A DNA stretch of 64,000 nucleotides from Massalongia carnosa (taxonomy: Eukaryota). Below are positions 9,954 through 61,216 of this stretch, in pieces. The stretch covers positions 1,178,001 through 1,242,000 of the forward strand of contig OZ287087.1 of assembly GCA_965645245.1 (NCBI GenBank), given 5' to 3'. How positions within the stretch are numbered: the stretch's first letter is position 1; the number at the start of each line of letters is the position of its first letter. The position numbers were made by a program, and so were the translations under genes. A model generated the notes under the pieces. The model was not told the DNA's origin, made no database searches, and saw only the letters and a program-made list of their open reading frames with translations.

Positions 9954-10452
9954 TATTATATATGATAAATACGCAAAATTAAATCAAAATCTTAAATCTT
10001 CACGATTTTCGAAAATAAGTTATGATTTGATGAAGTTATTTAAGAAAACAATATTAATTATTACAAAAATCTCGAAATTTAAAATTGAAATTTTGAAAAA
10101 TAAATAACGTAACAATCGTTATGTAAGTAAAATACGCAAAAATGCGTCAAAATCACAAATCTTTAAAAAATTGTATACATAGAATCGCGGTTAAAGATTC
10201 AAACTACAGCAAAATTGATAAACGTGTCTTTATTCGCGTAATTTTAAAGATTCAAATCTAACGAATTTAATGTTAAGACTAAATACGAACAGTATGATTA
10301 TATGAGGTTTATGTAGCTGTTGCTGATCAATAACAAGAAAATTCCTGAGAAAAAGTAGGGTGTGAGAATGAATCAAGTAAATTGATCAGTGATCTTCGAA
10401 AGAAATGAGCAATAAATTCTTTATTTTATAGTTTCATCTCGATCAGATCACG

Positions 10453-10755
10453 TCTAACCTATATGCGTAATTGAACTGAAGGTCTCATTCAATAAAACTG
10501 TTAGTGATCAGATTTACTTAAGCGGCGTACTTGTAATCTGAGGAAACCTCATTGAATTAGTTTCTATTTTCTCAATTCATTTACAAGAAGTGTTAGAATT
10601 TCTTTCAAAAATTTGAAGCAGATAGCCCGTTCTCGAAATTGTAACATATGTTTCAAGAAAAAAAAATTAGATCATTGCTTGATTTTAGAAAAATCGCGAC
10701 GCAAAGAATGTTTGAGAAGGTTTTCAGCGACGAAAGTACAGAAAAATCATAACTC
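10453..10755 (+). repeat. Decayed copy of ~300-bp module found intact upstream of the central helicase gene
   Basis: TCTAACCTATATGCGTAATTGAA...GATTTACTTAAGCGGCGTACTT...AACTC matches 34382-34683 with many C>T/G>A changes. Confidence 0.88.
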
Positions 10756-11260
10756 TAGCAGTAGTATTCTCTGGAACCGTCCGAAGTTCCACTCAGGGAA
10801 TCTTTCCGATTAGACGGCGGAGCCGGAAACACATTTTCCGAATGGAATCCTGCAGAGTTCCATTCAGCGAGTAGAACCTCGAAGTGTTTTCACAATATCT
10901 TTTTATTAAAGTGGTAACGTAAGAAACTTTTTATATATGAATAATAGTTAACTGCATGCAGTACACAAATATTTAAGAATTTTGAGATTCAGACTTGATT
11001 TGATGAAGTTATTCATGAAAACAATGTCAATTAACAGAAAAACCTCGAACTTCAAAAATTGAAAATTTGAAAAGTGAGTAACGCAAAAAAACATTTAATA
11101 TGTTAAATACGCAAATTTGAATCGAAATTTCAAATCTTCAAGAAATTTGAAAATATCACGTAATCTGATAAAGTTATTAATGAAAGGAGTATTGATATCT
11201 TAAAAATTCAACAATGTCAAAATAAAAAACATTGAAAAACTGATAACGTAAATAACAATA

Positions 11261-12756
11261 ATGATTATGATCATGATCATGTTGATGTATTCATATTCCG
11301 ATATGATACCGGCCGTAGGCCCGCTCATGCGGGGAAAGCTATCTAAGTTATGTTAAATGGAAAACCTTTCAAAGGTGTAAAAACCATGTCCCTTGATACC
11401 CGTCCGATGTGACTACGGGTCGACGTCGGGCGGGAGACGCAGTGCAAAAGACTTGTGGGAACCGTAATGCCTTGTGAAAAGAGAAGAAAGAAAGAAAGGT
11501 TCAACTAATGTTAATTTTACAATAATGAAAATGCTAGTGAGAATTGATTCAATAAGCCTGTTTTCAATAGCCAAGCAGTTAGTATCTTCAGAGTTTTTGA
11601 TTATTTGGTCAGCTGCTGATACTCGCTCGTGCCAGCGGCGCGAAACATCTGTTCTCTATTGTCAATAAGTCTGCAGAACATGATTACATGTTCTGGAGTT
11701 TGTCTGTGCCAGCCACATGAGCAGGCCGGTGAGGCGATGGAGGGCAACCGTCGCTTGTAGAGGAAGTCAGCTAACCCGATTTTGGCAGTGCGGATTTGAG
11801 TCGTTAGAGCGCTTTCTGCCTTTTTTAGCTGCGTGTATATTTTCAGCCGATTTTTGCTCAGTGGGACTGATTGTGCTATGGAGGGTTCGATGAGGCGATT
11901 TTGATATGCGCACCACGATTCGTTCCAGAACTTCATTTATCGTGCTTTGATTGTTTGCATCTGCTTGTGTCGGGCCGTTGCCGCAACGGTAGCTTCGCGG
12001 TGCAACGCCGGGTAGACTTCGAACTATGTTTGGTGTGCCTTTGGTAGTTGAACTATTTTTGAGTCGATCACTAGGCTTTTGGCCCAGATGTGTTTCAGCT
12101 CTCCCGGGGTAGGCTTACGAAGTTGATTGCGACCTGCCTTGCCTCGAAGTTTGTCAGCTATTTTGTTGCATTTAGCGAAGATGATTGTTTTGCATGACGG
12201 AGAGCTTTCTCGTTGACGTTTTTGACTTTTTGACTTCTTTAGGCATGTGCCATACGGTTGACCCATATATCATGGCCGGACGCACCACGGCACTGTAAAT
12301 CTGCCTTGCCTTGGCGAAGGTGGCACCCTAGGTTGATTTGGAAATTTTTGTCAATGCCATGGATTTTTTGACCATTTTCTCTTGCGTTTTGCGAACGTGC
12401 GGTCCCCATTTCAATTTGGTGTCGATTTGTAGGCCCAATACTCTGATATCCGTTTTAGGTTCAATTTCGGTGCTAGCAATATTGATGGATGCAGTCATGT
12501 TGAATCTTATGGGATTTCTAGACAAGTGTATGAGTTCGTACTTCGTCGGAGCGAATACGGACCCGTGCCGGGAAGATCACGTCTCACATTGTCTGTGTAT
12601 TGCCTCTAGAGTTTTGCAGTTTTCCTCGGATCTTTTTCCATATGCCAAAATGTTTGCGTCGTCTACGAATTCTATTGCACTTGTGTTTTTGCCTGGTCGA
12701 TCACATATTTCCAATAGATCTGCATTGTAAAATAGGTAAAGAATGGATGAAAGGGG
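11261..12756 (-). mobile_element. 5'-truncated LINE, shared by both arms (mirror at ~58693-60321)
   Basis: RT-to-3'UTR fragment with degenerate tail. TSD GTAAATAACAATA at 11248-11260 and 12757-12769. Internal deletion near 12187 relative to the mirror copy. Confidence 0.88.
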
Positions 12757-13468
12757 GTAAATAACAATATATATGTTAAATATGAATATTTTACTGAAAA
12801 GATTAAATATTCAAGACTTTTGAAAATCTGACTGGATTTGATGAAGTTATTCATTTCAAAATTTGAAATTTTGAAAAGTCAGTAACGCAAAAAACATTAT
12901 ATATGTTAAATACGCAAAATTGAATCAAAATCTTAAATCTTCATGAATTTTGAAAATGAGGTATGATTTGATGAAGTTATTCAAGAAAAGAATATTAATT
13001 ATTACAAAAATATCGAAATTTAAAATTGAAATTTTGAAAAACAAATAACGTAACAATCGATGATGATGATGATGATGAATTTATACTCCGATATGACACC
13101 GGCCGTAGGCTGGCCCATGGGGGCAAAGCTATCTATGGTATGTTACATGGATAACCTTTCACAGATGTGAAAATAATATCTCATGATATTCGTTCGATAC
13201 GATTTCGAGTCGTCATCGAGCAGAAAACGCAGAGCAAAAAAATGTGAAACAGTGATTGCTTATAATGTGAAAATGAAAAGAAGTTCAACTATTGTTGATT
13301 GTACAATATTGTTGATTCTAGTGAAAATTGAATCAATAAGTCTGTTTTAATTAGTTAAGCAGTTAATATCTTCAGAATTTTTGATGATTCGATCAGTTGT
13401 TGATAGTCGTTCGTGTCGACGACGAGAAACTTCTGTTCTCTGTTGTCAATAAATCTGCAGAACATGAT

Positions 13469-14192
13469 TAGGGTGGCCGTTGGGTTGGGTTTAGGACAAA
13501 GTTGATGTCCTAGTCCGTCCGTTGGACCCCAACAGGGTTGGACAAATTCGGCCTAGTTGTCAAACCCTAGGACGTTTGTCCGTTGGGTTGCCCTACTCGA
13601 TTACTCCCGAACGAACATCAATACAGTTCATTATCTGCATCTACATCTAAATTATCATCTACTGACTACTCTTTAGAGAGAATTTATGAAATTATAGACC
13701 TCATCAGGCGCATTCTAATAATGCAAAAATCATCAACAACGAATCGCTTTTGATAACGTTATGATGGATAGAAGTTGAAATGATCAGAAATATTGCGCCC
13801 GGTGAACGGAGGTGGTGCAAATTGCTCACCGGGCGCAATATTTCTGATCATTTCAACTTCTATCCATTATAAAGTTATCAAAAGCGATTCATTTTTGATG
13901 ATTTTTGAATCATTTGAATACGCCTGATAAGGTATATAATTTCATATTTTATATTTATATAGTAGTTAGTAGGTGATTTTACAAATTTATATGCAGATAA
14001 TGAACTGTTTTGATGTTCAACGTAAGTTCTTTTCTTATCTAAGCTTAGGACATGCCCTTTTAGGGTTGGGTTGGGCGTGGGACAAACGACATGTCCGGTC
14101 AACCCTAGTGGACATTATTTATGTCCGAAATTGTCTATTGGGTTGGGTTGGGAGCACTATTATGGTTACAACCCAACCCATCGGTCACTCTA
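13469..14192. mobile_element. 724-bp non-autonomous hAT-like MITE
   Basis: TIRs TAGGGTGGCCGTTGGGTTGGGTT / AACCCAACCCATCGGTCACTCTA. 8-bp TSD AACATGAT/AACAAGAT. Uninterrupted LINE copies read GAACATGATTACATG here. Confidence 0.88.
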
Positions 14193-17100
14193 AACAAGAT
14201 TACATGTTCTGAAATTTGTCTGTGTCAATCACATGAACAGATCGATGAAATGACGAAAAGCATTCGTCGCTTGTAAAGAAAGTCAGTTAATTCGATCTTG
14301 TCAATGCGAATTTGTGTTGTTAAAGCGCTTTTGTCTTTTTTAACTGCGTGTGTATTTTCGGTCGTTTCTTGCTCAATGAAACTAATTGTATTATAAAGAA
14401 TTCGATGACGCGATTTTGATATGCGCATCATGAATCGTTTCAGATTTTCGGTTGTCGTGCTTCGATTGCTTGCATCTGTTTATGTCGAATTGTAGTCGCA
14501 ACGATATCTTCGCGATATCACGTCGAATAGATTTCGAATCATGATGAGTATGTCTTTGATGAATGAATTATTTTTGAATCGATCAGTAAACCTTTGACTC
14601 AGATGTGCTTCATCTTTCTCGAAGTGAGCTTTTGAAATCATTTGCGATCTGTCTTTCCTCGAAGTTTGTCAGCTATTTTGTTGCATGCGAAGAAGATGAT
14701 TTTTGATTGACCTTCGACTCGGAGTCGATGCCTTTCCTGTGCATGTGAGATGTCGAGATACGTGTCTATGAGCTCTATGAATGTCACTGCTTCTAGTACT
14801 GAGACGAGAGTGACTTTAAAGACATCGATTATGATGTGAAGACAATTGTTTTGCATGACGAAAAACTTGCTCGTTGACGTTTTTGACTTTTTGACTTTCT
14901 TGAGCATATGTCATACGATTGATTCATATGTCATAATCGATCGCATCTCGACATTATAGACTTGTCTAGTCTTGACGAAAATGACACTTCAGATCGATGT
15001 GAAAATTTTTGTCAATGTCATGAATTGTTTGATTATTTTCTCTTGCGTTTTGCGTACGTGCGATCCTTATTTAAATTTGATTTCAATTTGCAGGCTCAAT
15101 ATTCGTATGTTCGTTTTTGATTCAATTTCGATGCTAGCAATGTTGATAGATGCAGTCATGTTGAATTTTTTGAGATTTTTGAACACTTAAATTGTGCGTT
15201 ATTCGTTGATATAAAATCGTGTCAAACGCGTCGACGACGTTCATACTTAACAGTGTTATTATTTTATCTTTTTTCTGTTCTCAAATCGTGTGAACCTGTT
15301 CAGTTAACAGTTTCAGTGCTGACTTTATGAACTGTTCTTTCTTGCTCTCATCTGTGCGTCTAGTAATAATCGATGAGTTTTCGCTAAATAAATTATTTTC
15401 GATTCAATGATGAATTTTATAACTTTACTGAGCGTGTTGAGCAGTGCAATTGATCGACAAGCTTTCGATTTTGTATAATCTTCTTTGTCTGATTTTTTCA
15501 GCGTTATTCTATTTGTCACTTTGAAGATTCGCGAATGATACGAATATGTGACGCAGGCCTGAAACAGAAATGTTAATAATTCGACAAATTTTTCACTGCA
15601 TACTTTGAATATTTTGTTAAATATGCCGTCTGAGCTCGATGTCTTATCGGACTTGAATCGATTCAGAGTCGACGATACTTTCGATTTGATTATGATTATT
15701 GAACAGTACGGCGATGTAGAATAGAAGAACCCTTTTATGTCGCTTAAATCGACTGATGATGATGCGAGAAAAAAGAGGCCTTTCAGCATTTCGACTTTTT
15801 GATCGAACGTGTCTGTTACTTTATCATTGAATTTTAGCATTGACATTTTCAATACTTCTTTAAATAAATAACTTTTGTCTTTGATTCATTTTATTAATCG
15901 TCATAGTCTTTGAAACGTTTCGATGATTTTATTGATTTTTTGACGAAAGTTTGTTTTCTTTGTCTTTTGAAAAATTTTCTGTTTTTTGTCATTGAATTTC
16001 ATATAATTAAATCAGTTCGTTAGATTTAGCGTGCTAGATCATATGCGACGTAATTTTCGTGTGACTTTGATGACAGTGCTGCATTCTTCAATTCAAAAGA
16101 GCTCAACATATTCGCTGAGCTTTGCTCATGAAACGACTTCGTTGATGATCTTTTGTAGAAATTTTTGAATCGATTTCGTGTACGCATCAATTTCGACAGT
16201 AATGCGAAAAGATTTCGATGCAAATGCGTGACGTTCGATTTCTTTTAATTTTTTCAGATTTAAAAGTTTTCATGTTCTGCGTTTGATTTTCGATTGCGAT
16301 TCGCTCTCGAGTAAAATGCGAATTGATATCGAAACATGATCAAATGATTAATTTAATTCTGATCTGAACATGCAGTGTTCGAGTCTTTCAACTAAATATT
16401 CTGACATGAAAATCAAATTTATCGTTTTAAACGTGTTTCTTGCTTTTCATGTTACGATGTCTTTCGACAGTGTCAACGAGAGATTGTGATCATCGATTAT
16501 TTTTAATAATTTATCAGCAGCAGCGTGTTGTTTGAGTATTGAGAAATCATTTCAAATGAAATGATGCAGATTGAAATCATCAAGTAATATGTGATGCGCA
16601 TCGACGATAAGCATGCTTGGAGAGGTCGATAAAGTAGTGAGATTATTTGATAATGAATGAAAGACGAAAGAGAGATTATACACATTATGAACGTGAATTG
16701 TTTTCATGATGTCTTTGACTTAGATTTTTATTTTCAAAGTGCGCATGTCGATAGAGAAGTATTTCATTTTTCAGCTGTCAGTATCTATTAAATCGTTGAT
16801 ATAAAAGCACACTCTGATGTCACTTTCCGAGCGATATAGAAAATGAAAGTCGCTTTGATGAAAACTGAGCGATGTGAAAACAAATGAATTTCGTCACGAT
16901 TCCTGTATTGCAATAATATTATAATTCTGAATGTTTGTGTCTGTTAAGAGAGATATCATAGTATTCACTCTGTTATTTCTGACATCATACTGCAATATAA
17001 AGAGATATTTTGTATCTTTCATAGAATTTTCATCGTTTCGATAACTGTGTTTGATGTGATCTGAGTTTCTGTCGTTAATGCTACGAAATCTGCACGAAAT

Positions 17101-18097
17101 CTTTTCAGTACTGATTTTGCTAAGATCTTTATCATATTTTCTGGATTCATGATGTCTATATTAGCTCAGATGATTACGTCTTCTTTTCGATGAAAACTCG
17201 AAAATGAATCGAATGATGACGTGATACTATGTAGTTTTCTCCTCTTGTAGTTTACTATATTTCACGTTGACGAGATTTCGTTCGTTTGTGTGACTGTAAG
17301 TGTCGATTCTTGTTGAAGTTAAAATTGAAATGTGAACGACTGTGATTCGATTGCGTAAAGAAAAGCGCGATTTTGCATTGTTATTTCAGTTTTTCGCTTT
17401 TTAGCTTTTCAGACTTTGCATGCTGTGAATCATGCTTCGTGTTTCTTTTTTTCGCATACGACGCAGCGACGATACTGTTCTGTTGTCTTTAGATTGCATT
17501 CTTTGCTTTGATGTTTATCGACGTAATGATCACAGGCGACGAGATTGCGACATGATTTATCGATGTGATCTTAATTTTAAAAGTTGAAGTATTGATTCAT
17601 GATGCAATCACGTGTAAAGCGCTCGCAATTCTTTATTTCGTAACTTTTCATTAAATTCTCGATGATTAATCGATTAATCATCTCGACGATGACGATCTTT
17701 ATATGAAACGTCGAATACGCTTTTTTCTTTCTGATGATCTTGATTGATCAGATTATTTTTACGATCTTCAAATTAAAGTGCAGAGGTGTGTTAGCGATCT
17801 GCAGATGAATGATGACTGTTGATTGATTGATCACTTTAATGTTTTTTATTTTTATTTCATTCGTTCTTACGATGTAAATGCGAGTGTGCATCGCAGTTGA
17901 AACGATCATCATGCGAGTTTAATCGATCTTCTTTTGCAGAAACTTCTTTGCTTTCAATGATTCGACTTGTATTTTGATGTCGTCGTTTAACAGTCGCGAT
18001 ATTTATATTATTTCTTCAACTTCATTTTGTAATGTTGTTATCAACTTCTTGATTGACATTAATTTTATTTTATTCTTGATCGCATCTTTCGTGATGT

Positions 18098-18566
18098 TGT
18101 CAGGGCATAGAAGGAATAAGGGCTAAGCTAACTAAGCGGGGCTTAGTTCTACGGCTAGGCTTAGTCATATGGAAAGCAGTTGGTCTGCGTTACGCGGTTG
18201 GTATCCACTGCCGAGAGTATAGTACGAGCGATCGAGATATACGAGGATGCTCGTACGACAAGTGAGCGGATGGTACGATACAGTCAGCAAAGTGTCCACG
18301 ATGCAGTCAGCAGAGTGTTTAGCCGGCTTATCCGGTAGGAGTAATGGGCGGTCAAGATAGTTACAGTATCAAGGGCCCAGAGGGTCAAGGGCTTCGGTCC
18401 GGGTATATAAGGAGGCTGCTCGAGGGAGATGCGATCTTCAACGATTAGTCTTCCGCTTTACCTACATACTTCTTTTAGTATATTAGTATAACAAATCATT
18501 AGTGTCTTCACATTGTCACATATCCCTTGGCCTGGTGTCTGATAATCGCCAGGTCTGACTCTTACA
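18098..18566 (+). repeat. Gypsy 5' LTR (469 bp)
   Basis: TGTCAGGG...CTTACA, with TATATAA at 18404-18410 and two 23-bp internal repeats. Confidence 0.95.
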
Positions 18567-18643
18567 ATTCTAATCGTTCTATCCTTCAAGGAGTGACGAT
18601 CCGTTGACACATTTATACACCTTCTATACACTATCGTCCTACC

Positions 18644-19872
18644 ATGTCCGCGCAAGAAGTTGCCTCTGATACCCTGATGCCGGAGGAGCGGATCGAAGAA
18701 CTTTCGGATTCTGAGGGCCCTGGAAGAGGAGCCCTGACCCCAATGGAAAAAGTAGTCGAACCCATTCAACCCCTGACGTTGGACGAACAGATAGCGCAAG
18801 CTGAGCGCAGGCGTAGCGAACTTAAGAAGGAAGTACGTCTGAGGAATTTGAAAGCCAGTATTGAGCAACTCAAAAGCCTTCGAAACCTCCAAACCCTACC
18901 GGATCATCCAAGGAACCGGTAATGAGAGGAGCCGTTAACCCTCGTTCTGACGACAATGTAGAGATGACGAGTAGCCAGTCAGTACCTGTTGTTGTTTACA
19001 GGAGACGCGCTGCTAGACCCGAGAAAGTCAGTCCCTATCAAGGAAAAACGGTCAAGGAACATCTGGATTATGAGCGGAACTGCAGAGTGGCGTTTCGCGT
19101 GGCAAAAGAGGATTTCCCAGATGATGAATCCAAGATCGCTTTCGCAATGCAATCGCTGGAAGGGGAGCCTAAGGAAGCTTGGCATCGATATGAGGCAGAC
19201 GGTGAAATGCAAAATTATACCTTCGAAGAGTACTTGAAATTCTTGTTAAATATTGTCGAGGACCCAGTTAATCGAGGTCTGCATATGGCCCAATTATTTG
19301 CCGAAGCCAAGCAAGGAGAGAAGCAAACGGTAAGAGCTTTCGAGGCATACTTGAGTAGCCTCGAGGACCAGTTGCCCTCCTATACCGAAGAACAAAGAGC
19401 GACTCATCTGTTTACTAAGTTGCGGCCGTCTATTAGAGCAGCTATAGGCAACTATCAGAATATTCCAAGGACTAGAGAAGCTCTGGTGACTCTGGCCAGT
19501 AGGCTGGAAAACAATCAGAAAAGAGAAAACGATATCTTAACGACGTCGAAGCATGAGCGTCCAAATGTTTCTCACCCCCCTCGCACTAAATCACATAGAG
19601 ATAAGAGGAACGAGGAGATAAAGGACACTGACAAACCAAAACCTACGAAAGACGGTAAAAGGGGTCAGAAAAGAAAGCATGCTGAGACAAAGGAAAGTAC
19701 CGACGAGGTGACATGTTATCGCTGCGGAGAACAGGGTCACTACTACAACAAGTGTCCCAACCCTCCTAAAGACGACAAGGAGCCGAAGCACGGTGTGAAC
19801 GCCGTCGCAAAGTCGGGAAAAGCCAAACATCCACGGAAAGCTCGCCAGCCGATGGAGGGAAACGATCAGTAG
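18644..19872 (+). CDS. gag: Gypsy Gag (split into 92-aa and 316-aa ORFs at a TAATG overlap)
   Basis: Retrotransposon capsid-like region and CYRCGEQGHYYNKC knuckle in ORF 18922-19872. Confidence 0.85.
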
Positions 19873-22800
19873 AAAGCGAGCCAAGCCTATTTCCTGAGGG
19901 GACTATAACGAGGGGAGTCCAAAAATACCCGGCGACAGTGTTGCTTGATGGAGCAGTCGAGATTAATGTGACTAATCAGGGATTCGCCGTCGCTTCAGAT
20001 CTTAGACCTATTGAAAGCGAACTACCTGCTCCTCAATTCATGGATGGTAAAGAGGTTTACTGCTATCGAGCTTATGAGGTAGTAATGGCTCTCGAGGATA
20101 CTTGGCAGCGACATCGCACCTTTACCAGCGTGTTTTACGCAATTGACAAACAGGGCCCTGACTTGGTGTTGGGTCTCCATTGTCTCAAACAGCTGGGTAT
20201 CGTAATCGATTATGGAGCGAAGCGCTGGCGTTATGGCTTTCAGTCTGATATGTTCGAGTTGTGCAAGCCTAAACAGTTTGCGAAGACCCTGGATTCCGAG
20301 GCACCACTCTATGCTATAGTGGCTCAACCCAATGCACCTTCTTCCGAAAGACAACCTGTTAATGTTGGCGCTGTTGATGAGAACAACAGCCAGAACACCA
20401 ACGAAACGCAGGGGATACCTGTGGAATTTGCTGAATTCCAGGATGTTTTTTCTAAGGACAGAGCCAATCAATTAGCTACGCACAAGGACTGTGACAACGC
20501 TATCGATTTAGAAGGCGGTGATCCACCTTATGGTCCTTTATACAACTTATCGAATACGGAACTTAAGACTCTTCGGGAATATCTTGACGACGCCCTGGCG
20601 AAGGGTTGGATCCGGCACTCCACCAGTTCTGCAGGTGCACCAATACTATTTGTGCCTAAGAAGGACGGTACTCTGCGCCTCTGCGTTGACTATCGAGGAT
20701 TGAATAAGGTGACCAAAAAGAATCGTCATCCGCTCCCTCTTATCACGCAGATACTGGATCAGTTAAACGGGTGTTCCTATTTTACCAAAATGGATTTGCG
20801 AGATGCTTATCATCTACGAATCCGCAAGGGCGACGAGTGGAAGACGGCATTTCGATCCCGTTACGGACACTACGAGTATATGGTTATGCCTTTTGGATTA
20901 GCCAACGCCCCTGCAACTTTTCAAGCTTACATCAATAAAGCTTTATCTGGGATCGTGGATATTTTCTGCGTAGTCTATCTGGACGATATATTGGTATTTT
21001 CCAAAGATAGAACCAGCCATGTGGAGCATGTTAAAGAGGTGTTACGTCGTCTAAGGAAACACGATCTCTATGCAAATCTTAAAAAGTGCGAGTTCTTTGC
21101 TCCGGCCGTGGAATATATAGGGTTTATCATTAGCAGCGATGGTATCTCCATGGATCCACGCCGGGTTGAAACCGTGCGGGATTGGCCTGCACTTCAGTCC
21201 TTTCGAGAAATTCAGGTCTTTCTAGGGTTCGCCAATTTCTATCGACATTTCATACGTCATTATTCTCAAATCACTAGGCCATTGACTGACATGCTGAAAG
21301 GCATGCAGGCTGGGATAAAAAGGGGTACTTTTTATCTTACGGCCGAAGGAGCGGAAGCGTTTAGCAAGCTGAAAGAAGCCTTTCAGGGCGCGCCCATCTT
21401 GGTTCACTTCGATCCAGAACTGCTCATTCGCCTAGAGACCGATGCATCGGATTTCGGAATCTCTGGCATTATCTCCCAGTTGCAGAAGGATGGGCAATGG
21501 CATCCCGTCGCTTTCTACACGCGGAAGATGATACCGGCCGAGCGCAACTATGAAACCCATGATCAAGAGTTGCTGGCCATTGTGATGTGTTTTAAACACT
21601 GGAGGCATTACCTGGAGGGTAGCCTGCACCCCGTTGAGGTCCTGACAGACCACAACAATTTGAGGGGTTTTATGAATATTAAGGTGTTGAGTGGTCGGCA
21701 AGCGCGATGGGCTATGAAATTAGCCGCTTATGATTTCGTAATCATGCATCGCTCGGGAAAGACCAATCCTGCCGATGCACCGTCTAGGCGCCCTGATTAT
21801 CAGAGCATCAACACCGTGGTGACGAGATTGTTGCCTACTCTTCAAAAGAAGCTGAGCAAAATAGATTCCTTATGCGTAGGTTATACGCCGGGAATTCGTA
21901 CGGTGCTTGACGCACTTAGGTATGATCTTCGCTCAAAGATAGCTTCGTCCGGGATTGAACCCCTGGAGAATTTAGAGTGTGAAACCTCTAAATCAATTAC
22001 TTCTCTTGACGAAGAGAGTGATACTTTTGAAGTCGGCTTGACGCAATGTATTCCCCGGGCTGTAGCTGTTGCCTTATCAGATGAAGAAAAGCCTTTGGAA
22101 AGTGCTTCCAAGTCAGTGCTTGAACTCATCAAGGCGCTACAGGGGAAAGACGCATTCGTGTCTAGCAGGCGAGAGACCGTTGCTAAGTCTTTGAAGCGCA
22201 AGGGTGGTCGCTCCCCCGAAGCAATTTGGACTATAGATAGCAATGATCTTCTCAATCATCGTGGCAGAATTTACGTGCCCGATGAAGAATCTATTCGTGC
22301 GGAGCTGTTGCGGCGTCATCATGACGACGAGCTCGCGGGTCATTTTGGTGCGGAGAAAACAGCTGAGTTGCTTACCCGCAAATACTATTGGAAAGGACTT
22401 AACAATACTGTGAAGAAGTACACGGAATCCTGCGACATTTGTCAAAGGACGAAGGCGCCTAGGCACCAACCTTACGGGGTTATGCAATCGCTTCCACGTC
22501 CTTCCGGTCCTTGGAAAGAAATCACTATGGATTTCATAACTGGGTTTCCACCTAGCAAGCGTTTCGGCCGGGTTTATGACTCGTGCCTAGTAATTGTGGA
22601 TAGATATACCAAAATGGCGCTATATATCCCGGTTACGAAAAAAATCAATGCAGTGGACCTGGCAGAAATTCTGTTTGAATCGGTAGTATTAAAGTTCGGC
22701 GCTCCTGAGGGCATAGTATCGGATAGAGGGTCGGTCTTTACCAGTGAGTACTGGTCAGAAATTTGTTTTCATTTAAAGACGAAACGCCGGCTTAGCACGG

Positions 22801-39517: not shown

Positions 39518-39589
39518 TGGAATAAATTTTCGAATTTTATATTATCCTACAACAATTCACATGCAAATTTTCATTTGAATCATCAAATT

Positions 39590-46575: not shown

Positions 46576-46643
46576 ACCCCCCTCAAGTCCTACCAGTACT
46601 TGTTTCCATCGTGGATTCAACCGTGGTTGAACTTCTTTACCTC

Positions 46644-49930: not shown

Positions 49931-50385
49931 GGCGAGAAACTTAGTAGTGACTGAAAGAATGTGGATCTGTGACCTTTCTTATAGACAAGGAAAAAACAGT
50001 CCCTCCTTAGCCAGTGTCCACTCTGATGTCTCAACAGAGAAACCTGTTAGCTTAACATGCTTGTTTGCCATGATGAGAATTTCAACTCCGGCTTTTTCAA
50101 GGGTCCAATTGACCAAAAGAAAATTGATTATTCCAATTGATTTAACCGGCCTTAGGCCGGTTAGATAATAAGAGGCAACTGCCGCACAATCTCATCTAGT
50201 GCCTTAAGGAGGCATAATTGCCAAAAAGAAAGGTCTTTGTGCCTTCGATCAATGAGTTTACTAAGCTCTTTGATGTCCGAGGGATTTTGTATTGTTTGCG
50301 TGTCCAGAACTCAACCACGGGTGAACTGACGCTTTGATGATTTTTGAACCAATGGGGCGCTCAGGGCCAGCAATATACTTTTTTT

Positions 50386-50936
50386 GCCTTCGACCATCGA
50401 GCTTAGCGAGCTCTTTTGGTGTCCGAGGACTTCGGTGCCTTCGACCATCGAGATTAGCGAGCTCTTTGGTGTCCGAGGACTTCGGTGCCTTCGACCATCT
50501 AGCTTAGCGGGCTCTTTGGTATCCGAGGACTTGAGCGACTTCGACCATCGAGCTTAGCACGCCCTTTGGTGTCCGAGGACTTGAGTGCCTTCGACCATCG
50601 GGCTTAGCAAGCTCTTTGGTGTCCGAGGGCTTGAGTGCCTTCGACCATCGGGCTTAGCAAGCTCTTTGGTGTCCGAGGACTTGAGTGCTTTCGACCATCG
50701 AGCTTAGCAAGCTCTTTGGTGTCCGAGGACTTGATTGCCTTCGACCATCGAGCTTAGCAAGCTCTTTGGTGTCCGAGGACTTAATTGCCTTCGACCATCG
50801 AGCTTAGCAAGCTCATTGGTGTCCGAGGACTTGAGTGCCTTCGACCATCGAGCTTAGCAAGCTCTTTGGTGTCCGAGGGCTTGAGTGCCTTCGACCATCG
50901 AGCTTAGCAAGCTCTTTGGTGTCCGAGGGCTTCGGT
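50386..50936. repeat. 11 x 50-bp tandem repeat in Copia 5' leader
   Basis: Unit GCCTTCGACCATCGAGCTTAGCAAGCTCTTTGGTGTCCGAGGACTTGAGT starts at 50386, 50437, 50487 ... 50887. A degenerate extra copy lies at ~50241. Confidence 0.95.
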
Positions 50937-51185
50937 GTAGTACGATCAATGTGTTCATGCTCTTTCTAACACCCAGTTTTTGTTCTTCTGACAAGAAATC
51001 GCTGTGTACAGAAGAGAGAACTGATTGATGTGATTTAAGGGATCGTTTCTAAAGATACAGAAAGATTTTAGTCATGTGTCTACGATTCATTGAATAGGAA
51101 CGATGCTTAGCTGATTGCACTGCGAAGCTGCGGATTAAAAGTTTCGATTCGTTTAAATCGATAGCACCCTTCCGGGCTCATAACC

Positions 51186-51459
51186 TGTTGAAATAGGTGT
51201 ATGACTTTGGCTATATGGCTATGTAATAATAAAGGTATGTATGACCGTGATGTTAAGGATGAAGAGTTGCTAGGCAGCAATCTTTTCCTATTACTGGTCA
51301 CCCCCTTCTAAGCGAGGGGATATTATCTTATCTTGGGACTAAGCCTAATGCGGCATCTACGGAATCCGTAGATGATCTGTCCATCTAGGGCAGCCGTAGG
51401 TGCTATGTTCATCGTACTGATATGTGTTCATTTTGCTGGTAGGAATTGGATATTCAACA
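51186..51459 (-). repeat. Copia 5' LTR
   Basis: Matches 46302-46575; followed on the minus strand by the PBS. Confidence 0.95.
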
Positions 51460-52552: not shown

Positions 52553-55500
52553 ATTATTGAAAAACGGAAGGAAGAATGACGGCACTCGAACAATCAAACG
52601 CGCTCTCGAGAACGCACAGCGAAAGGAGGAATGGTTTGCACGTAAAGATCAAGTAGTACATTGATCGAGTGAGCATCGTGAGTGACTCGAAGGCATTGCT
52701 GTTGCTGAAAAATTCAGCGAAAATTTTGCAAGCGCAAAACCTAGTCGATGACAAATTTGCAGAAACTCTCAACAACATAAATGAAATATTAAAGGGAATT
52801 CAATAATCATTGACACGCATAAAGTGCAATGAGATCATTCTTCGCAGCTATGTCGCTGCTGTCGCAGGACGAGGTCGCGACGAGCTCGCATTCTCAAAGA
52901 ATCAAAATATCAAATCTCAACAGACTCGCAAAGACAAAGCATTCACATTCAGAAAAGCGCGACGTGCTCGAGAAATCATCGTTCACTTCACGAAAGATGC
53001 GATCAAGAATAAAATAAAATTAAAGTCAATCAAGAAGTTGATAACAACATTACAAAATGAAGTTGAAGAAATAAGATAAATATCGCGACTGTTAAACGAC
53101 GACATCAAAATACACGTCGAATCATTGAAAGCAAAGAAGTTTCTGCAAAAGAAGATCGATTAAACTCGCATGATGATCGATTCAACTGCGATGCACACTC
53201 GCATTTACATCGTAAGAACGAATGAAATCAAAATAAAAAACATTAAAGTGATCAATCAATCAACAGTAATCATTCATCTGCAGAACGCTAACATACCTCT
53301 GCACTTTAATTTGAAGTTCGTAAAAATAATCTGATCAATCAAGATCATCAGAAAGAAAAAAGCGTATTCGACGTTTCATATAAAGATTGTTATCATCGAG
53401 AAGATTAATCGATTAATCATCGAGAATTTAATGAAAATTTACGAAATATAGAATTGCGAGCGCTTTACACGTGATTGCATCATGACTCAATGCTTTAACT
53501 TTCAAAATTACGATCACATCGATAAATCATGTCGCAATCTAGTCGCCTGTGATCATTACGTCGATGAACATCAAAGCAAAGAATGCAATCTGAAGACAAC
53601 AGAACAGTATCGTCGCTGCGTCGTATGCGAAAAAAAGAAACACGAAGCATGATTCACAGCATGCAAAGTCTGAAAAGCTGAAAAGCGAAAAACTGAAATA
53701 ACAATGCAAAATCGCGATCTTCTTTACGCAATCGAATCAATTTCAAATTTAACTTCAACGAGAATCGACACTTACAGTCACACAAACGAAAGAAATCTCG
53801 TCAACGTGAAATATAGTAAACGACAAGAGAAGAAAACTTCATAGTATCACGTCATCATTCGATTCATTTTCGAGTTTTCATCGAAAAGAAGACGTAATCA
53901 TCTGAGCTAATATAGAAATCATGAATCCTGAAAATATGATAAAGATCTTAGCAAAATTAGTACTGAAAAGATTTCGTGCAGATTTCGTAGCATTAACGAC
54001 AGAAACTCAGATCACATCAAACACAATTATCGAAACGATGCAAATTCTTTAAAAGATACAAAATTTCTCTTTATATTGCAGTATGATGTCAGAAATAACA
54101 GAGTGAATACTATGATATCTCTCTTAACAGACACAAAAATTCAGAATTATAATATTATTGCAATACAGGAATCGTGACGAAATTCATTTGATTTCATATC
54201 GCTCAGTTTTCATCAAAGCGACTTTCATTTTCTATATCGCTCGGAAAGTGACATTAGAGTGTGCTTTTATATCAAGGATTTAATAGACACTGACAGCTGA
54301 AAAATGAAATACTTCTCGATTGACATGCGCACTTTGAAAATAAAAATCTTAGTCAAAGACATCATGAAAACAATTCACGTTCATAATGTGTATAATCTCT
54401 CTTTCGTCTTTCATTCATTATCAAATAATCTCACTACTTTATCGACGACTCGAAGCATGCTTATCGTCGATACGCATCACATATTACTTGAAGATTGCAA
54501 TCTGCATCATTTATTTTGAAATGATTTCTCAATACTCAAACAATACGCTGCTGCTGATCAATTATTAAAAATAAAAAAAATCGATGATCACAATCTCTCG
54601 TTGAAACTGTCGAAAGACATCGTAACATGAAAAGCAAGAAACACGTTTAAAACGATAAATTTGATTTTCATATCAGAATATTTAGTTGAAAGAATCGAAC
54701 ACTGCATGTTCAGATCAGAATTAAATCAATCATTTGATCATGTATCGATATCAATTCGCATTTTACTCGAGAGCGAATCGCAATCGAAAATGAAACGCAG
54801 AACATGAAAACTTTTAAATCTGAAAAAATTAAAAGAAATCGAACGTCACGCATTTGCATCGAAATCTTTTCGCATTACTGTCGAAATTGATGCGTACACG
54901 AAATCGATTCAAAAATTTCTACAAAAGATCATCAACGAAGTCGTTTCATGAGCAAAGCTCAGCGAATATGTTAAGCTCTTTTAAATTGAAGAATGCAGTA
55001 CTGTCATCAAAGTCACACGAAAATTACGTCGCATATGATCTAGCACGCTAAATCTAACGAACTGATTTAATTATATGAAATTCAATGACAAAAAACAGAA
55101 AAATTTTCAAAAGACAAAGAAAACAAACTTTCGTCAAAAAATCAATAAAATCATCGAAACGTTTCAAAGACTATGACGATTAACAAAATGAATCAAAGAC
55201 AAATGTTATTTATTTAAAGAAGTATTGAAAATGTCAATGCTAAAATTCAATGATAAAGTAACAGACACGTTCGATCAAAAAGTCGAAATGCTGAAAGGCC
55301 TCTTTTTTCTCGCATCATCATCAGTCGATTTAAGCGACATAAAAGGATTCTTCTATTCTACATCGCCGTACTGTTCAATAATCATAATCAAATCGAAAGT
55401 ATCGACGACTCTGAATCGATTCAAGTTCGATAAGACATCGAGCTCAGACGGCATATTTAACAAAATATTCAAAGTATGCAGTGAAAAATTTGTCGAATTA

Positions 55501-58353
55501 TTAACATTTCTGTTTCAGGCCTGCGTCACATATTCTTATCATTCGCGAGTCTTCAAAGTGACAAATACAATAACGCTGAAAAAATCAGACAAAGAAGATT
55601 ATATAAAATCGAAAGCTTATGGATTAATTGCACTGCTCAGCACGCTCAGTAAAGTTATAAAATTCATCATTGAATCGAAAATAATTTATTTAGCGAAAAC
55701 TCATCGATTATTACTAGACACACAGATGAGAGCAAAAAAGAACAGATTCATAAAGTCAGCACTGAAACTGTTAACTGAACAGGTTCACACGATTTGTGAA
55801 CAGAAAAAAGACAAAATAATCACACTGTTAAGTATGAACGTCGTCGACGCGTTTGACATGATGTTACATCAACGAATAACGCACAATTTACGAAAAAAAA
55901 TATTTCAAAATGAATCACTGAATTGATTAAACAGCTTTTTGAGCGATCGAAACATCACTTTAATCATGAATCGAAAAGTCATCGAGCGATTTGCGATAAA
56001 AACGAGTATTTCACAGAATTTTCTTCTGTCATTCATTCTCTATCTATTTTACTATGCAGATTTACTGAAAATATGTGATCGATCAGACAAAAACACAAGT
56101 GTAATAGAATTCGTAGACGATGCGAACATTTTGACATATGAAAAAAGCATCGAGAAAAATTGCAAAACTTTAGAGACAATACACAGGCAATTTGAGACGT
56201 GAATTTTTCGACGCGAGTTCGTATTCGCTTCGATCAAGTACGAACTCATACATTTGTTTAAAAATCTCAAAAAATTCAACATGACTGCATCTATCAACAT
56301 TGCTTGCATCGAAATTGAATCAAAACGAACATAAGAATATTGAGCCTGCATATTGACATCAAATTAAATTGAGGATCACACGTTAGCAAAACGCAAGAGA
56401 ATATAATCAAACAATTCATGACATTGACAAAAATTTTCACATCGATCTGAAATGTCATTTTCGTCAAGACTAGACAAGTCTATAATGTCGTGATGCGATC
56501 GATTATGACATATGAATCAATCGTATGACATATGCTCAAGGATGTCAAAAAGTCAAAAACGTCAACGAGCAAGTTTTTCGTCATGCAAAACAATTGTCCT
56601 CACATCATACTCGATGTCTTTAAAGTCACTCTCATCTCAGTACTAGAAGCAGAGACATTCATAGCGCTCATAGACATGCATCTCGACATGTCACAGGCAC
56701 AGAAAAGGCATCGATTCCGAGTCGAAGGTCAATCAAAAATCATCTTCTTCGCATGCAACAAAATAGCTGACAAACTTCGAGGAAAGACAGATCGCAAACG
56801 ATTTCAAAAGCTCACTTCGAGAAAGATGAAGCACATCTGCGTTAAAGGTTTATTGATCGATTCCAAAATAATTTATTCATCAAAGACATACTCATCATAA
56901 TTCGAAATCTATTCGACGTGACATCGCGAAGATATCGTTGCGACAACAATTCGAAATAAACAGATGCAAGCAATCAAAGCACATGATGCGCATATCAAAA
57001 TCGCGTCATCGAATTCTTCATAACACAATTAGTTTCATTGAGCAAGAAACGACTGAAAATACACACGCAGTTAAAAAAGACAAAAAGCGCTTTAACAATA
57101 CAAATTCGCATTGACAAGATCGAATTAACTGACTTTCTTTACAAGCGACGAATGCTCTTCCTAATTTCATCGATCTGTTCATGTGATTGACACAGACAAA
57201 TTTCAGAACATGTCATCATGTTTAAAGTGACCGATAGGTTGGGTTGTAACCCTAATAGGGCTCCCAACCCAACCCAATAGAAAATTTCGGACATAATTAA
57301 TGTCCACTAGGGTTGACCGGATATGTCGTTTGTCCGACGCCCAACCCAATCCTAAAAATGCATGTCCTAAGCTTAGATAAGAAAAGAACGTACGTTGAAC
57401 ATCAAAACAGTTCATCATCTGCATCTAAATTTTTAACATCACCTACTAACTACTATACAGATATAATTTATGAAATTATATACCTTATCAGGCGTATTCA
57501 AATGATTCAAAAATCATCAAAAATGAATCGCTTTTGATAACGTTATGATGGATAGAAGTTGAAATGATCAGAAATATTGCGCCCGGTGAGCAATTTGCCC
57601 CTCCTCCGCTCACCGGGCGCAATATTTCTGATCATTTCAACTTCTATCAATCATAACGTTATCAAAAGCGATTCGTTTTTGATGATATTTGCATTATTAG
57701 AATGCGCCTGATGAGGTCTATAATTTCATAAATTATCTCTAAAGAGTAGTCAGTAGATGATAATTTAGATGTAGATGCAGATAATGAACTGTTTTGATAT
57801 TCGTTCGGGAGTAATCGAGTAGGGCAACCCAACGGACAAACGTCCTAGGGTTGGACAACTAGGCCGAATTTGTCCAACCCTGTCGGGGTCAAACGTACGG
57901 ACTAGGACATCAACTTTGTCCTAAACCCAACCCAACGGCCACCCTAATATAGTTCTGCAGATTTATTGACAACAAAGAACAGATGTTTCGCGTCATCGAC
58001 ACGAACGACTATCAACATCTGATCGAATCATCAAAAATTCTGAAGATATTAACCGCTTGACTAATGAAAACAGACTTATTGATTCAATTTTCACTAGCAT
58101 CAACAATATTGTACAATCAACAATAGTTGAACTTCTTTTCATTTTCACATCATAAGCAATCACAGTTTCACATGTTTTTGCTCTGCGTTTTTTGCTCGAT
58201 GACGACTCGAAATCGTATCGAACGAATATCATGAGATATTATTTTTACATCTTTGAAAGGTTTTCCATGTATCATAACCTAGATAGCTTTGCCGGCATGG
58301 GCCGGCCTACGGCCGGTGTCATATCGGAGTATAAATTCATCATCATCATCATC
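52553..58353 (+). mobile_element. Mirror copy of hypermutated LINE (without Gypsy, with MITE)
   Basis: TSD ATCGATTGTTACG at 52540-52552 and 58354-58366. Decayed ORFs nearly the same as the left copy (55225-55926 vs 15325-15852; 54854-55051 vs 16026-16223). Confidence 0.92.
57223..57946. mobile_element. Mirror copy of hAT-like MITE
   Basis: Same length (724 bp), same insertion site in the LINE; flanks ATCATGTT/ATATAGTT. Confidence 0.88.
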
Positions 58354-58692
58354 ATCGATTGTTACGTTATTTGTTTTTCAAAATTTCAATTTTAAATTTC
58401 GAGATTTTTGTAATAATTAATATTGTTTCCTTGAATAACTTCATCAAATGATATCTCATTTTCAAAATTCGTGAAGATTTAAGATTTTGATTCAATTTTG
58501 CGTATTTAACATAGATAATGTTTTTTGCGTTACTGACTATTCAAAATTTCAAAATTTGAAATTCGAGGTTTTTGTATCATTTGATATTGTTTTCATGAAT
58601 AACTTCATCAAATCAAGTCAGATTTTCAAAACTCTTGAATATTTAATCTTTTTCAGTAAAATACTCATATTAACATATATATTGTTATTTGC

Positions 58693-60321
58693 CCCCTGTC
58701 ATCCATTCTTTACCTATTTTACAATGCAGATCTATTGGAAATATGTGATCGACCAGGCAAAAACACAAGTGCAATAGGATTCGTAGACGACGCAAACATT
58801 TTGGCATATGGAAAAAGAACCGAGGAAAACTGCAAAACTCTAGAGGCAGTACACAGACAATGTGAGACGTGGGCTTCCCGGCACGGGTCCGTATTCCCTC
58901 CGACGAAGTACGAACTCATACACTTGTCTAGAAATCCCAAAAGATTCATCATGACTGCATCCATTAATATTGCTAGCACCGAAATTTAACCTAAAATGGA
59001 TATCAGAGTATTGGGCCTACAAATCGACACCAAATTGAAATGGGGACCGCACGTTCGCAAAACGCAAGAGAAAATGGTCAAAGAATCCATGGCATTGACA
59101 AAAATTTCCACATCAACCTGGGATGCCACCTTCGCCAAGGCAAGGCAGATTTACAGTGCCGTGGTGCGTCCGGCCATGATATATGGGTCAACCGTATGGC
59201 ACATGCCCAAAGAAGTCAAAAAGTCAAAAACGTCAACAAGTAAACTCTCCGTCATGCAAAACAATTGCCTTCGCACTATAGCCGGTGCCTTTAAAGCCAC
59301 TCCCATCTCAGTACTAGAAGCAGAGACATTTAAAGCGCGCATAGTCACGCATCTCGACATACTACAAGCACATACAAGGCACCGGCTCCGAGCCGGAGGC
59401 CAATTGAAGATCATCCCCTCCATATGCAACAAAATAGCTGACAAACTTCAAGGCAAGGCAGGTTGCAATCGACTTCATAGCCCACCCCGGGAGAGCTGAA
59501 ACACATCTGGGCCAAAAGCCTACTGATCGACTCAAAAATAGTTCAACCACCAAAGGCACACCCACAATAGTTCGAAGTCTACCCGGCGTTGCACCGCGAA
59601 GCTACCTTTGCGGCAACGGCCCGACACAAGCAGATGCAAACAATCAAAGCACGACAAATGAAGGTCTAGAACGACTCGTGGTACGCATATCAAAATCGCG
59701 TCATCGAACCCTCCATAGCACAATCAGTCCCACTGAGTAAAAAACGGCTGAAAATACACACGCAGATAAAAAAGGCCGAAAGCGCTCTAACGACTCAAAT
59801 CCGCACTGGCAAAATCGGGTTAGCTGACTTCCTCTATAAGCGACGGTTGCCCTCCGTCGCCTCACCGGCCTGCTCATGTGGCTGGCACAGACATGTATTC
59901 ATGTTCTGCAGACTTATTGACAATAGAGAACAGATATTTCGCGCCGCCGGCACGAGCGACTATCAGCAGCTGACCAAATCATCAAAAACTCTGAAGATAC
60001 TAACTGCTTGGCTAATGAAAACAGGCTTATTGAATCAATTCTCACTAGCATCAACATTATTGTAAAATCCACAATAGTTGAACCTTTCTTTCGTTCTTCT
60101 CTTTTCACAAGGCATTACAGTTCCCACAAGTCTTTTGCACTGCATCTCCCGTCCGACGTCGACCCGTAGTCACATCGGACGGGTATCAAGGGACATGGTT
60201 TTTACACCTGTGAAAGGTTTTCCATTTAACATAACTTAGATAGCTTTGCCCGCATGAGCGGGCCTACGGCCGGTATCATATCGGAGTATGAATATATTAT
60301 CAACATCATCATCATAATCAT
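58693..60321 (+). mobile_element. Mirror copy of 5'-truncated LINE
   Basis: Same 5' truncation point and flanks as 11261-12756. RT FVDD fragment through 3'UTR and tail. Confidence 0.88.
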
Positions 60322-60825
60322 CATTGTTATTTACGTTATCAGTTTTTCAATGTTTTTTATTTGACATTTTTGAACTTTTAAGATATCAGTACTCCTTTCA
60401 TTAATAACTTTATCAGATCACGTAATATTTTCAAATTTCTTGAATATTTGAAATTTCGATTCAAATTTGCGTATTTAACATATTAAATGTTTATTTGCGT
60501 TACTCACTTTTCAAAATTTCAATTTTTGAAGTTCGAGGTTTTTCTGTTAATTGACATTGTTTTCATGAATAACTTCATCAAATCAAGTCGGATTCTCAAA
60601 ATTCTTGAATATTTGTGGACTGCATGTATTTAGTTATGTTTCATATATAAAAGGTTTCTTAAGTTACCGCTTTTATAAAATGATATTGTGAAAACACTTC
60701 GAGATTCCACTCGCTGAATGGAACTCTGCAGGATTCCATTCGGAAAATGTGTTTCCGGCTCCGCCGTCCAATCGGAAAGATTCCCTGAGTGGAAAATCGG
60801 AGGGTTCCAGAGAATACTACCGTTA

Positions 60826-61125
60826 GAGTTTTTATGTTTCTGTACTTTCGTCGCTCAAAACCTTCTCGAATATTCTTTGCGTCGCGATTTTTCTAAAATC
60901 TAGCAATGATGGAATTTTTATTCATGAAACATGTTTCAATTTCGAGAACGGGCTATATGCATCAAACTTTCGAAAGAAATTCGAACATTTCTTGTAAATG
61001 AATTGAGAAAATAGAAATTATTTCAATGAGGTTTCCTCAGACGACAAGTATGCCGCTTAAGTAAATCTGATCACTAACAGTTTTATGGAATGAGACCTTC
61101 GATTCAATTACTCATATAGGTTAGA
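60826..61125 (-). repeat. Mirror decayed copy of the ~300-bp module
   Basis: Reverse complement of 10453-10755. Confidence 0.87.
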
Positions 61126-61216
61126 CGTGATCTGATCGAGATGAAACTATAAAATAAAGAATCTATCGCTCATTTCTTTCGAAGATAACTGATCAATTGA
61201 TCTGGAGCTTGTACAA

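Follow-up and report, generated by a model that had tools for sequence, protein, structure and literature searches.

Palindromes at chromosome ends after telomere loss (PMC4981268) and fold-back inversions resolved from dicentric chromosomes (PMC10622511) have been described in budding yeast. In the portions of these reports cited here, distal sequence is lost and proximal DNA is mirrored, as expected at an unprotected end. Here we describe a locus of related layout in Massalongia carnosa. The window, that is, the whole stretch of DNA analysed, has a length of 64,000 nucleotides and corresponds to positions 1,178,001 to 1,242,000 of contig OZ287087.1 (assembly GCA_965645245.1); all coordinates below count from its first letter. 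Much of the window is an interrupted palindrome, and the core between its arms carries a dead gene which, judged by its sequence, belongs to the fungal telomere-linked RecQ helicase (TLH) family. We consider it probable (at roughly 0.6) that the locus is the fossil of a fold-back, or of a head-to-head end fusion, that followed the loss of a chromosome tip. The kind of rearrangement is already known, and the window adds a new natural example.

Set beside the yeast cases, as far as these are described in the cited portions, the locus is natural, is old (its arms have diverged by 4.4%) and belongs to a filamentous ascomycete. Its spacer measures 6.4 kb rather than 6 and 35 bp (PMC10622511), its junctions show neither an inverted repeat nor microhomology, and its position at a chromosome end is one that we infer.

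The TLH subtelomeres of Magnaporthe oryzae, in the part of PMC1635262 cited here, are similar in comprising a multicopy family with many dead copies (only 4 of 11 are full length), a distinct proximal boundary and nearby transposons. The TLH genes adjoin telomere repeats there, and this part of the report mentions no palindrome. In the window, by contrast, the gene is followed by an inverted arm and not by a telomere repeat.

Inverted repeats also flank the central core of the centromeres of Schizosaccharomyces pombe and Candida tropicalis, which lie in repeat-rich DNA. The core of the window differs in being a pseudogene of a dispersed family, and boundaries formed by tRNA genes are absent. 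The 2-micron plasmid of yeast carries the gene for the tyrosine recombinase Flp between inverted repeats of 599 bp. In the window, too, a gene with a predicted tyrosine-recombinase fold lies between inverted repeats, but this gene is dead, and the arms consist of at least 10 kb of transposable-element debris which is absent from 44 of 45 other loci of the family. Palindromes P1-P8 of the human Y chromosome have gene-bearing arms of many kb around a unique spacer and are more than 99.9% identical. The arms in the window are likewise long, enclose a unique spacer and become more alike inward, as gene conversion could produce; they differ in being gene-free and 95.6% identical.

An interrupted palindrome with arms of 10 kb

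Repeat finding and minus-strand self-comparison by blastn showed that positions 10380-33669 and 40084-61198 are collinear inverted arms flanking a core of 6,414 bp. The matching segments (92.6-96.5% identity, Table 1) form a single collinear inverted series, which leads from 10380/61198 inward to 33669/40084 and is broken only at arm-specific sequence. Before the arms were aligned, four arm-specific retrotransposons were taken out together with one copy of the target-site duplication (TSD) of each. This left 10,016 bp for the left and 10,575 bp for the right arm. The alignment has 9,502 matches, 435 mismatches and 717 gap columns, equivalent to an identity of 95.6%, and this similarity is far beyond chance. 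An initial annotation of the window, made from the letters alone, had described a palindrome of more than 50 kb with inverted arms of about 10 kb around a 6.4-kb core, and the alignment bears this out. It had also placed a long interspersed nuclear element (LINE) at position 61199, where it cuts the right arm; this holds as well. Because of this LINE, the outer ends of the arms are not seen. The left arm runs on beyond 10380, the point that matches the cut.

Identity between the arms is about 91.5% at the outer end and climbs inward, reaching 96-98% in places within the inner half, which could be due to gene conversion near the centre or to differences in the type of sequence. The mismatches comprise 185 transitions and 250 transversions and are thus without transition excess, and no segment reaches the classical indices of repeat-induced point mutation (RIP). 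Since their origin, these two 10-kb copies, which are more than 95% identical, have therefore been spared RIP-type mutation. Joints between opposite strands, as expected from a flip-flop of the core, were absent from the contigs of the public runs X1, X3 and X4, which are too short to phase the arms. The sole such joint, in run X5 (32340 to 40084), falls in satellite and is uninformative.

Composition of the arms and order of insertions

The arms are ordinary repeat debris. They had been thought to be built of satellite. According to a rough count by tblastn with the window's own LINE proteins, however, LINE relics account for more than half of each arm, and a degenerate 164-bp satellite makes up a smaller part, the remainder. 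Three older insertions had been reported at the same sites of both arms, and all three were found: a truncated LINE, an old full-length but broken LINE, and an element resembling a miniature inverted-repeat transposable element (MITE), which sits within an arm pair of 95% identity (12853-14341 / 57074-58562). Two of the larger gaps between the arms are deletions of 146 and 362 bp in the LINE relics of the left arm.

Each arm also contains an old copy of the 5' module of the TLH unit found in the core (Table 1). The two arm copies share 43 differences from the core copy, 34 of which are G>A or C>T, mostly in CC/GG context. This older, mutated module means that TLH-type DNA stood at the locus earlier.

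The four arm-specific retrotransposons (a Gypsy/Ty3 element and a LINE on the left, a LINE and a Copia-type element on the right) were confirmed as initially annotated, boundaries included: each has a TSD, and the opposite arm has an uninterrupted site in each case. Pfam confirmed the proteins of the Gypsy element and the LINEs, and detected a chromodomain in the former (18098-24610). For the degenerate Copia-type element it detected fragments of gag, pre-integrase and SH3 domains on the minus strand. The long terminal repeats (LTRs) of the Gypsy element differ at 9 sites and by one indel of 46 bp (1.9% divergence), those of the Copia-type element at 9 of 274 sites (3.3%). Divergence thus decreases from the arms (4.4%) via the Copia LTRs to the Gypsy LTRs, and these relative ages fit insertion after the duplication.

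A decayed TLH gene in the core

The core continues the satellite of the left arm for about 450 bp (33670 to about 34125). An AT-rich stretch, the TLH unit starting at 34382 and an A-rich tail follow. The spacer had been said to hold essentially nothing except a TLH-like gene and its upstream module; gene and module are indeed there, but so are this satellite and 0.57 kb of A-rich sequence. One junction of the palindrome precedes the TLH unit by 712 bp, and the other follows the TLH stop codon after 566 bp.

Assignment to the TLH family is based on several sequence comparisons. Pfam recognizes OrsD, DEAD and Helicase_C in the core gene, and the open reading frame (ORF) at 37712-38740 matches DEAD with E = 1.5e-17 and Helicase_C with E = 2e-16. 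A profile of the gene's relatives matches the structures of RECQ5, RECQ1, BLM, WRN and Escherichia coli RecQ with E-values of 1e-54 to 1e-41. Of 8,000 candidates scored in a protein search with the helicase ORF, 2,720 reached E<=1e-10. Among those with a name, the best matches (48-57% identity over the helicase part) come from Aspergillus, Pyrenophora ("telomere-linked helicase 1"), Alternaria and a lichen fungus. The gene is collinear with intronless TLH proteins of 1477-1570 aa; when one of these (P0013, 1,477 aa) was used for tblastn, residues 5-1449 were covered in order across the gene. The full TLH architecture is present in collinear order, consisting of an N-terminal OrsD/DUF3505 zinc finger, a long middle domain, the helicase and a Cys-rich C-terminus.

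The gene is dead in the window. It has six in-frame stops (36479, 37147, 37709, 38738, 38819 and 39350), the first two of which are TAG codons where relatives have Trp, and three frameshifts (near 35055-35117, 36585 and 37150-37190). In addition, the DECH sequence of the helicase DExH box is altered to GECH at 38075. The core had been annotated with a helicase gene; its attribution to the TLH family stands, but it is a pseudogene and not a working gene.

Five public runs contain part of the core, three of them from one organism (word shares 0.64-0.67), one from a second organism (0.39) and one labelled lichen metagenome (0.17), the contigs of which cover the TLH part only, so that we draw no conclusion on habitat or taxon from it. 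This material consists of contigs, so that depth gives no copy number. The region from 34382 to about 39520 occurs in many sequence variants, a single place in run X1 being covered by as many as 13 different contigs. The contigs of other copies depart from the window at 34382/34383 in X1, X4 and X5, and summed word depth, which is not a copy number, falls on either side of the 5.1-kb TLH unit. At least two lesions of the window copy are absent from other copies: at position 37709, all contigs in four runs have C, which removes the stop, and at 36585 every covering contig has an extra C, which removes the frameshift. Position 34382 is bridged by contigs from X1 and X3, and the right junction by a contig from X1 (39896-40129) with zero differences; the assembly itself may derive from the bridging runs.

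A 6-base period runs through the A-rich tail (39560-40083), with the consensus ATAAAA from Tandem Repeats Finder in about 37 copies at 58% match. We considered a mutated telomere array as its source and rejected it, given this consensus and the number of TTARRR words (2 compared to a mean of 5.8 after shuffling).

Direction and surroundings of related TLH loci

For comparison, 78 related TLH loci were collected from metagenome contigs. They include no close relative of the window copy; the top nucleotide identity is about 67%. Arrays of (TTAGGG)n with at least 3 units were found in 6 of the 78 loci. Each of the six arrays terminates its contig on the downstream side of the gene, 1.6-4.8 kb beyond the match, and upstream arrays are lacking (at least 1.6 kb of flank was available downstream in 33 and upstream in 36 of the 78 loci). 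Because the arrays are solely downstream in 6/6 loci, the TLH family is transcribed toward the telomere. Among 30 non-redundant loci with at least 1.2 kb of downstream sequence, 12 have an A-rich, strand-asymmetric tract after the gene, compared to 3/30 in an upstream control. Where the six telomere-bearing relatives have 1.6-4.8 kb between gene and telomere, the window has 566 bp of a tract of like character (A 59%, T 22%) and then the inverted arm.

The initial annotation had proposed a check of whether other copies of the gene sit between inverted arms. In forty-five loci, the gene is flanked by 150 bp or more on either side, and 44 of these are without an inverted repeat above 174 bp (none at all in 42, and only 95-174 bp in two). 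The exception is locus L021, with arms of 1.6 kb (1-1643 / 7082-8724, identical over 1-1640) which contain a LysM gene fragment; its TLH gene is cut at about residue 1303, and none of the 78 loci is close to it. When the 62 loci with a length of 3 kb or more were scanned for inverted repeats of at least 300 bp anywhere, L076 was added, the arms of which (1-1035 / 6157-7191, 100% identity) overlap the TLH gene itself. Both may be real young palindromes or artefacts of assembly or amplification. Since they belong to the same series of record names and their nearly 100% identical arms reach both contig ends, we regard them as possible artefacts and leave them out of account. L021 was considered as a young twin of the window locus and was dropped under this suspicion.

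Probable origin from a lost chromosome tip

Before the event, the order would have been proximal LINE and satellite DNA (now the left arm), 164-bp satellite, TLH unit and telomere, the unit comprising a 5' module with its palindromic motif, the ORF and an A-rich 3' tract. The end would then have been lost within this tract, about 0.57 kb beyond the TLH stop codon. The broken end may have joined to, or been primed on, satellite 1.3 kb upstream of the TLH start in opposite orientation, either by fold-back on the same chromatid or its sister, or by head-to-head fusion with a like-built end. As a result, proximal DNA would be repeated as a mirror image beyond the gene. Thereafter, the arms would have diverged by 4.4%, the left arm losing its 146 and 362 bp of LINE relics. 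Five retrotransposons would have inserted (the Copia-type element early, Gypsy later, and three LINEs), and the stranded TLH copy would have decayed.

We favour a fossil chromosome end because it agrees with the direction of the gene, with the A-rich tract that is cut, and with the TLH remnant of greater age in the arms. The observations are the arms, the positions of both junctions, the order of insertions, the gene family, and, among relatives, the orientation of its members and the tract on their 3' side; from these we infer the loss of the tip, the mechanism of joining and the position on the chromosome. Of the three origins suggested in the initial annotation, a fold-back or fused subtelomere thus fits best, with its TLH gene, telomere-ward direction and cut tract, although the telomere repeat is missing.

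Several points weigh against this origin. The window has 0 matches to (TTAGGG)2 with 1 mismatch or to (TTAGGG)3 with 3 mismatches. At their inner ends, the arms show neither microhomology nor an older inverted repeat; homology breaks off sharply after ...CGAACTT (33669 / 40084), and the bases that follow are not shared, though a microhomology of a few bases could have been lost during the 4.4% divergence. The 6.4-kb spacer is far larger than those of the cited yeast cases (6 and 35 bp). The outer end of the right arm is beyond the window, nothing within it shows how a dicentric product would be stabilised, and the chromosomal position is not given by 64 kb of sequence. The claim of a cut telomere-ward tract rests on a frequent, non-universal feature, as only 12/30 relatives have it. 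Finally, a passenger TLH relic in a mid-chromosome duplication would look identical within 64 kb.

This last arrangement, an internal inverted segmental duplication in repeat-rich heterochromatin, would involve no chromosome end. It could have arisen by replication template switching or by recombination between inverted LINE or satellite copies. Suitable substrates exist, since 3' fragments of one LINE family occur in both orientations within a few kb (e.g., 6837-7747 vs. 12185-11258, 90% identity). The window holds only repeats: it has no tRNA gene, no Rfam family and, among ORFs of at least 150 aa, no Pfam match outside transposable-element or TLH domains. The missing telomere repeat also agrees with an internal position. 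Nevertheless, we regard such an origin as unlikely, because the right junction lies in a tract that leads to the telomere in relatives, the gene faces this junction as it faces the telomere in 6/6 telomere-bearing loci, and the arms carry a second, older TLH remnant.

If the fossil-end interpretation is true, the locus is a natural, datable record of how a chromosome end of a filamentous fungus broke and then folded back or fused with another end, a record in which the sequence before the event, the junction and the order of later transposon arrivals can all be read. It would also illustrate the fate of a TLH copy stranded away from the end, namely decay. We found no literature on fold-back inverted duplications in fungal subtelomeres and nothing relevant on RecQ subtelomeres of lichens. 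According to the cited part of a review on fungal telomeres (PMC8381367), breakage-fusion-bridge events have not yet been detected or explored in Pyricularia.

The TLH middle domain and an upstream palindromic motif

The middle domain of TLH proteins models as the catalytic fold of tyrosine recombinases and topoisomerase IB. The AlphaFold (AF2) model was computed for a relative (L011:1763-3418) from an alignment of 82 sequences. Its predicted local distance difference test score (pLDDT) averages 68.6 and is 80-96 across most of residues 150-430. In a wide structural search with VIA-align, the top 19 rows are all tyrosine recombinases or topoisomerase IB, led by XerA (Z 11.6, root-mean-square deviation 3.4, 173 aligned residues), XerH (10.0) and the Brujita integrase (9.5), with Cre (9.1), XerD (8.8) and topoisomerase IB (8.5) next. 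The top 14 rows from Foldseek are XerA, XerH, Cre/Tre or an integrase, with weak E-values of 0.02-0.18 (none <=0.001). Sequence family models are silent: the Pfam family Phage_integrase (PF00589) was matched by neither of 2 full-length relatives (E<=0.1) and by none of 11 middle-domain fragments (E<=10), and in a profile search against the PDB only the helicase part found matches. The gene had been labelled "recombinase-like", which is right at the level of the predicted fold.

In alignment A3, R292 (QPAR) and K327 (HKG) are invariant, and R415, H459 and Y468 (GHTxHVAGxIYAR) are retained in at least 90% of the sequences. These residues are a candidate catalytic Arg-Lys-Arg-His-Tyr set, presumably corresponding to that of XerD and Cre in motif order and spacing. 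The segment with the Tyr has a pLDDT below 50, and a His three residues before R415 is absent. Full-text literature searches found no published link between TLH and tyrosine recombinases.

A perfect, GC-centred palindrome of 24 bp is located 17 bp inside the 5' edge of the TLH unit (Table 1). In the relatives, GC-centred palindromes have a density of 2.79 per 10 kb in the 1 kb upstream of TLH (12 in 43 kb), compared to 0.26 in the ORF, 0.95 downstream and 1.02 further upstream, so that this region is about 3- to 10-fold richer in them than other parts of these loci. The upstream palindromes have arms of 9-16 bp with a spacer of up to 8 bp and precede many TLH genes by 410-740 bp (L001, L007, L008, L012, L016, L028, L038, L041 and L050). 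In seven contigs that start near the TLH unit, the palindrome is about 100-150 bp from the contig start. The motif could be a recombinase site or a promoter element. The predicted fold does not make a giant transposon more credible at this locus, but TLH units may be mobile. If the model is right, a tyrosine-recombinase fold next to a RecQ helicase, together with a palindrome at the unit's edge, could explain how the family spreads among chromosome ends.

The large palindrome might then have been made by the TLH element's own enzyme acting on symmetric sites. TLH units would be selfish elements targeting chromosome ends, whose single protein would combine a zinc finger with a tyrosine recombinase and a RecQ helicase and would act on the GC-centred palindrome at the 5' edge. 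Since such a site is symmetric and hence without direction, joins could be head-to-head and ends could form hairpins, and palindromic chromosome ends should recur wherever units are active. The modelled fold with its nearly invariant motif residues, the position of the perfect palindrome and the enrichment in relatives are in accord with this. Even so, we consider it improbable: neither junction is at the 24-bp palindrome, the protein has no known activity, the palindromes could just as well be promoter elements, and L021 and L076, the only contigs with TLH between or inside perfect inverted repeats, may be artefacts.

Less probable explanations: centromere, giant transposon and assembly artefact

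The initial annotation had also raised an inverted-repeat centromere-like locus. A regional centromere or pericentromere, as in S. pombe (imr/cnt) or C. tropicalis, would share the formal layout of long inverted repeats, a unique core and gene-free, AT-rich satellite and LINE DNA, into which a chromodomain-bearing Gypsy element has inserted. The core, however, is a decayed copy of a multicopy gene and not a unique non-coding sequence, tRNA genes are absent, and a single structure of this kind is visible. Nothing in the window calls for a centromere, which we consider quite improbable.

The remaining suggestion was a giant DNA transposon with the long inverted arms as terminal repeats, moved by its central recombinase-helicase. 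It would account for a protein with a recombinase fold between inverted arms and for a multicopy TLH unit with a sharp 5' edge. The multicopy part in the public runs, however, is the 5.1-kb unit; summed word depth, no measure of copy number, falls on both sides. The arms are LINE relics, satellite and a MITE, the gene is dead, and neither ends nor a TSD of such an element were seen. Among the 45 testable loci, sizeable flanking inverted repeats are confined to the suspect L021. A giant transposon is therefore very improbable.

Palindromes are a known type of long-read artefact, but a fold-back chimera of the assembly is hardly credible given 435 differing sites and several indels between the arms, separate transposon insertions with TSDs in each arm, and the X1 contig that crosses the right junction without difference (from a run which may be the assembly's own source).

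Features of the window and observations on repeats

The features of the window are compiled in Table 1.

Table 1. Features of the palindrome, its core and its insertions, and pairs of inverted segments in the 64-kb window
Feature	Position	Strand	Remarks
Left arm, outer segment	10380-18097	.	Old TLH 5' module copy, satellite, truncated LINE, MITE, most of old full-length LINE
Left arm, middle segment	24611-25381	.	5' part of old LINE, then satellite
Left arm, inner segment	32126-33669	.	164-bp satellite
Unique core (spacer)	33670-40083	+	Satellite continuation, TLH unit, A-rich tail
TLH repeat unit	34382-39517	+	5.1 kb; multicopy in public runs; 5' edge is where contigs of other copies leave the window
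Perfect GC-centred 24-bp palindrome	34399-34422	.	ATTGAATTGGGGGCCCAATTCAAT; 17 bp inside 5' edge of TLH unit
TLH pseudogene	34948-39517	+	OrsD zinc finger, predicted tyrosine-recombinase-fold domain, RecQ helicase
A-rich strand-asymmetric tail	39518-40083	+	566 bp; A 59%, T 22%; ends at right-arm junction
Right arm, innermost segment	40084-40307	.	Satellite
Right arm segment	45671-46301	.	Satellite
Right arm, main segment	51460-61198	.	Mirrors 10380-18097, 24611-25381 and 32126-32919
Old mutated copy of TLH 5' module	10453-10752, mirror 60826-61125	+	300 bp; C>T/G>A-mutated
Truncated LINE, both arms	~11410-12756 / 58693-60053		5'-truncated; tblastn
MITE-like element, both arms	13465-14196, mirror ~57253-57984	.	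732 bp; 27-bp terminal inverted repeats; internal hairpin arms of 193 nt
Old full-length but broken LINE, both arms	~14192-18097 and 24611 to ~25100 / 52636-57223		tblastn
Gypsy/Ty3 chromovirus, left arm only	18098-24610	+	TG..CA ends; TSD GATGT; intact 1226-aa pol ORF
LINE, left arm only	25382-32125	-	APE endonuclease, reverse transcriptase, RNase H; poly-T at left end; TSD TGAAAAAAGAAT
LINE, right arm only	40308-45670	+	ORF1 and ORF2 intact; (ATCA)n tail; TSD ATCAAATCACGTGA
Copia-type LTR element, degenerate, right arm only	46302-51459	-	TGTTG..CAACA ends; TSD TGAAA
LINE interrupting right arm with its 5' end	61199-64000	+	Open ORFs; runs off window
Inverted pair	10380-12185 / 61198-59410		92.6%
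Inverted pair	12175-15185 / 59274-56255		93.2%
Inverted pair	15188-18097 / 55890-52985		96.3%
Inverted pair	24611-25381 / 52989-52239		93.3%
Inverted pair	32128-32919 / 52248-51459		96.0%
Inverted pair	32913-33364 / 46302-45851		96.5%
Inverted pair	33446-33669 / 40307-40084		96.4%

LINE copies and 5'-truncated fragments recur inside the 164-bp satellite (6120-7611, 9513-9957, 11410-12756 and both arm-specific LINEs). The TSDs of both young arm-specific LINEs lie in satellite units, and one of the two has an (ATCA)n tail that matches its target (ATCAAATCA...). The LINE family may target the satellite.

The LINEs at 1-3703 and 61199-64000 are of one family (83% identity) and stand in mirror orientation with their 5' ends facing the palindrome. 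Their divergence is too great for them to have belonged to the arm duplication. A 50-bp tandem repeat is present within the Copia-type element at 50385-50932 (10.9 copies, 93% match).

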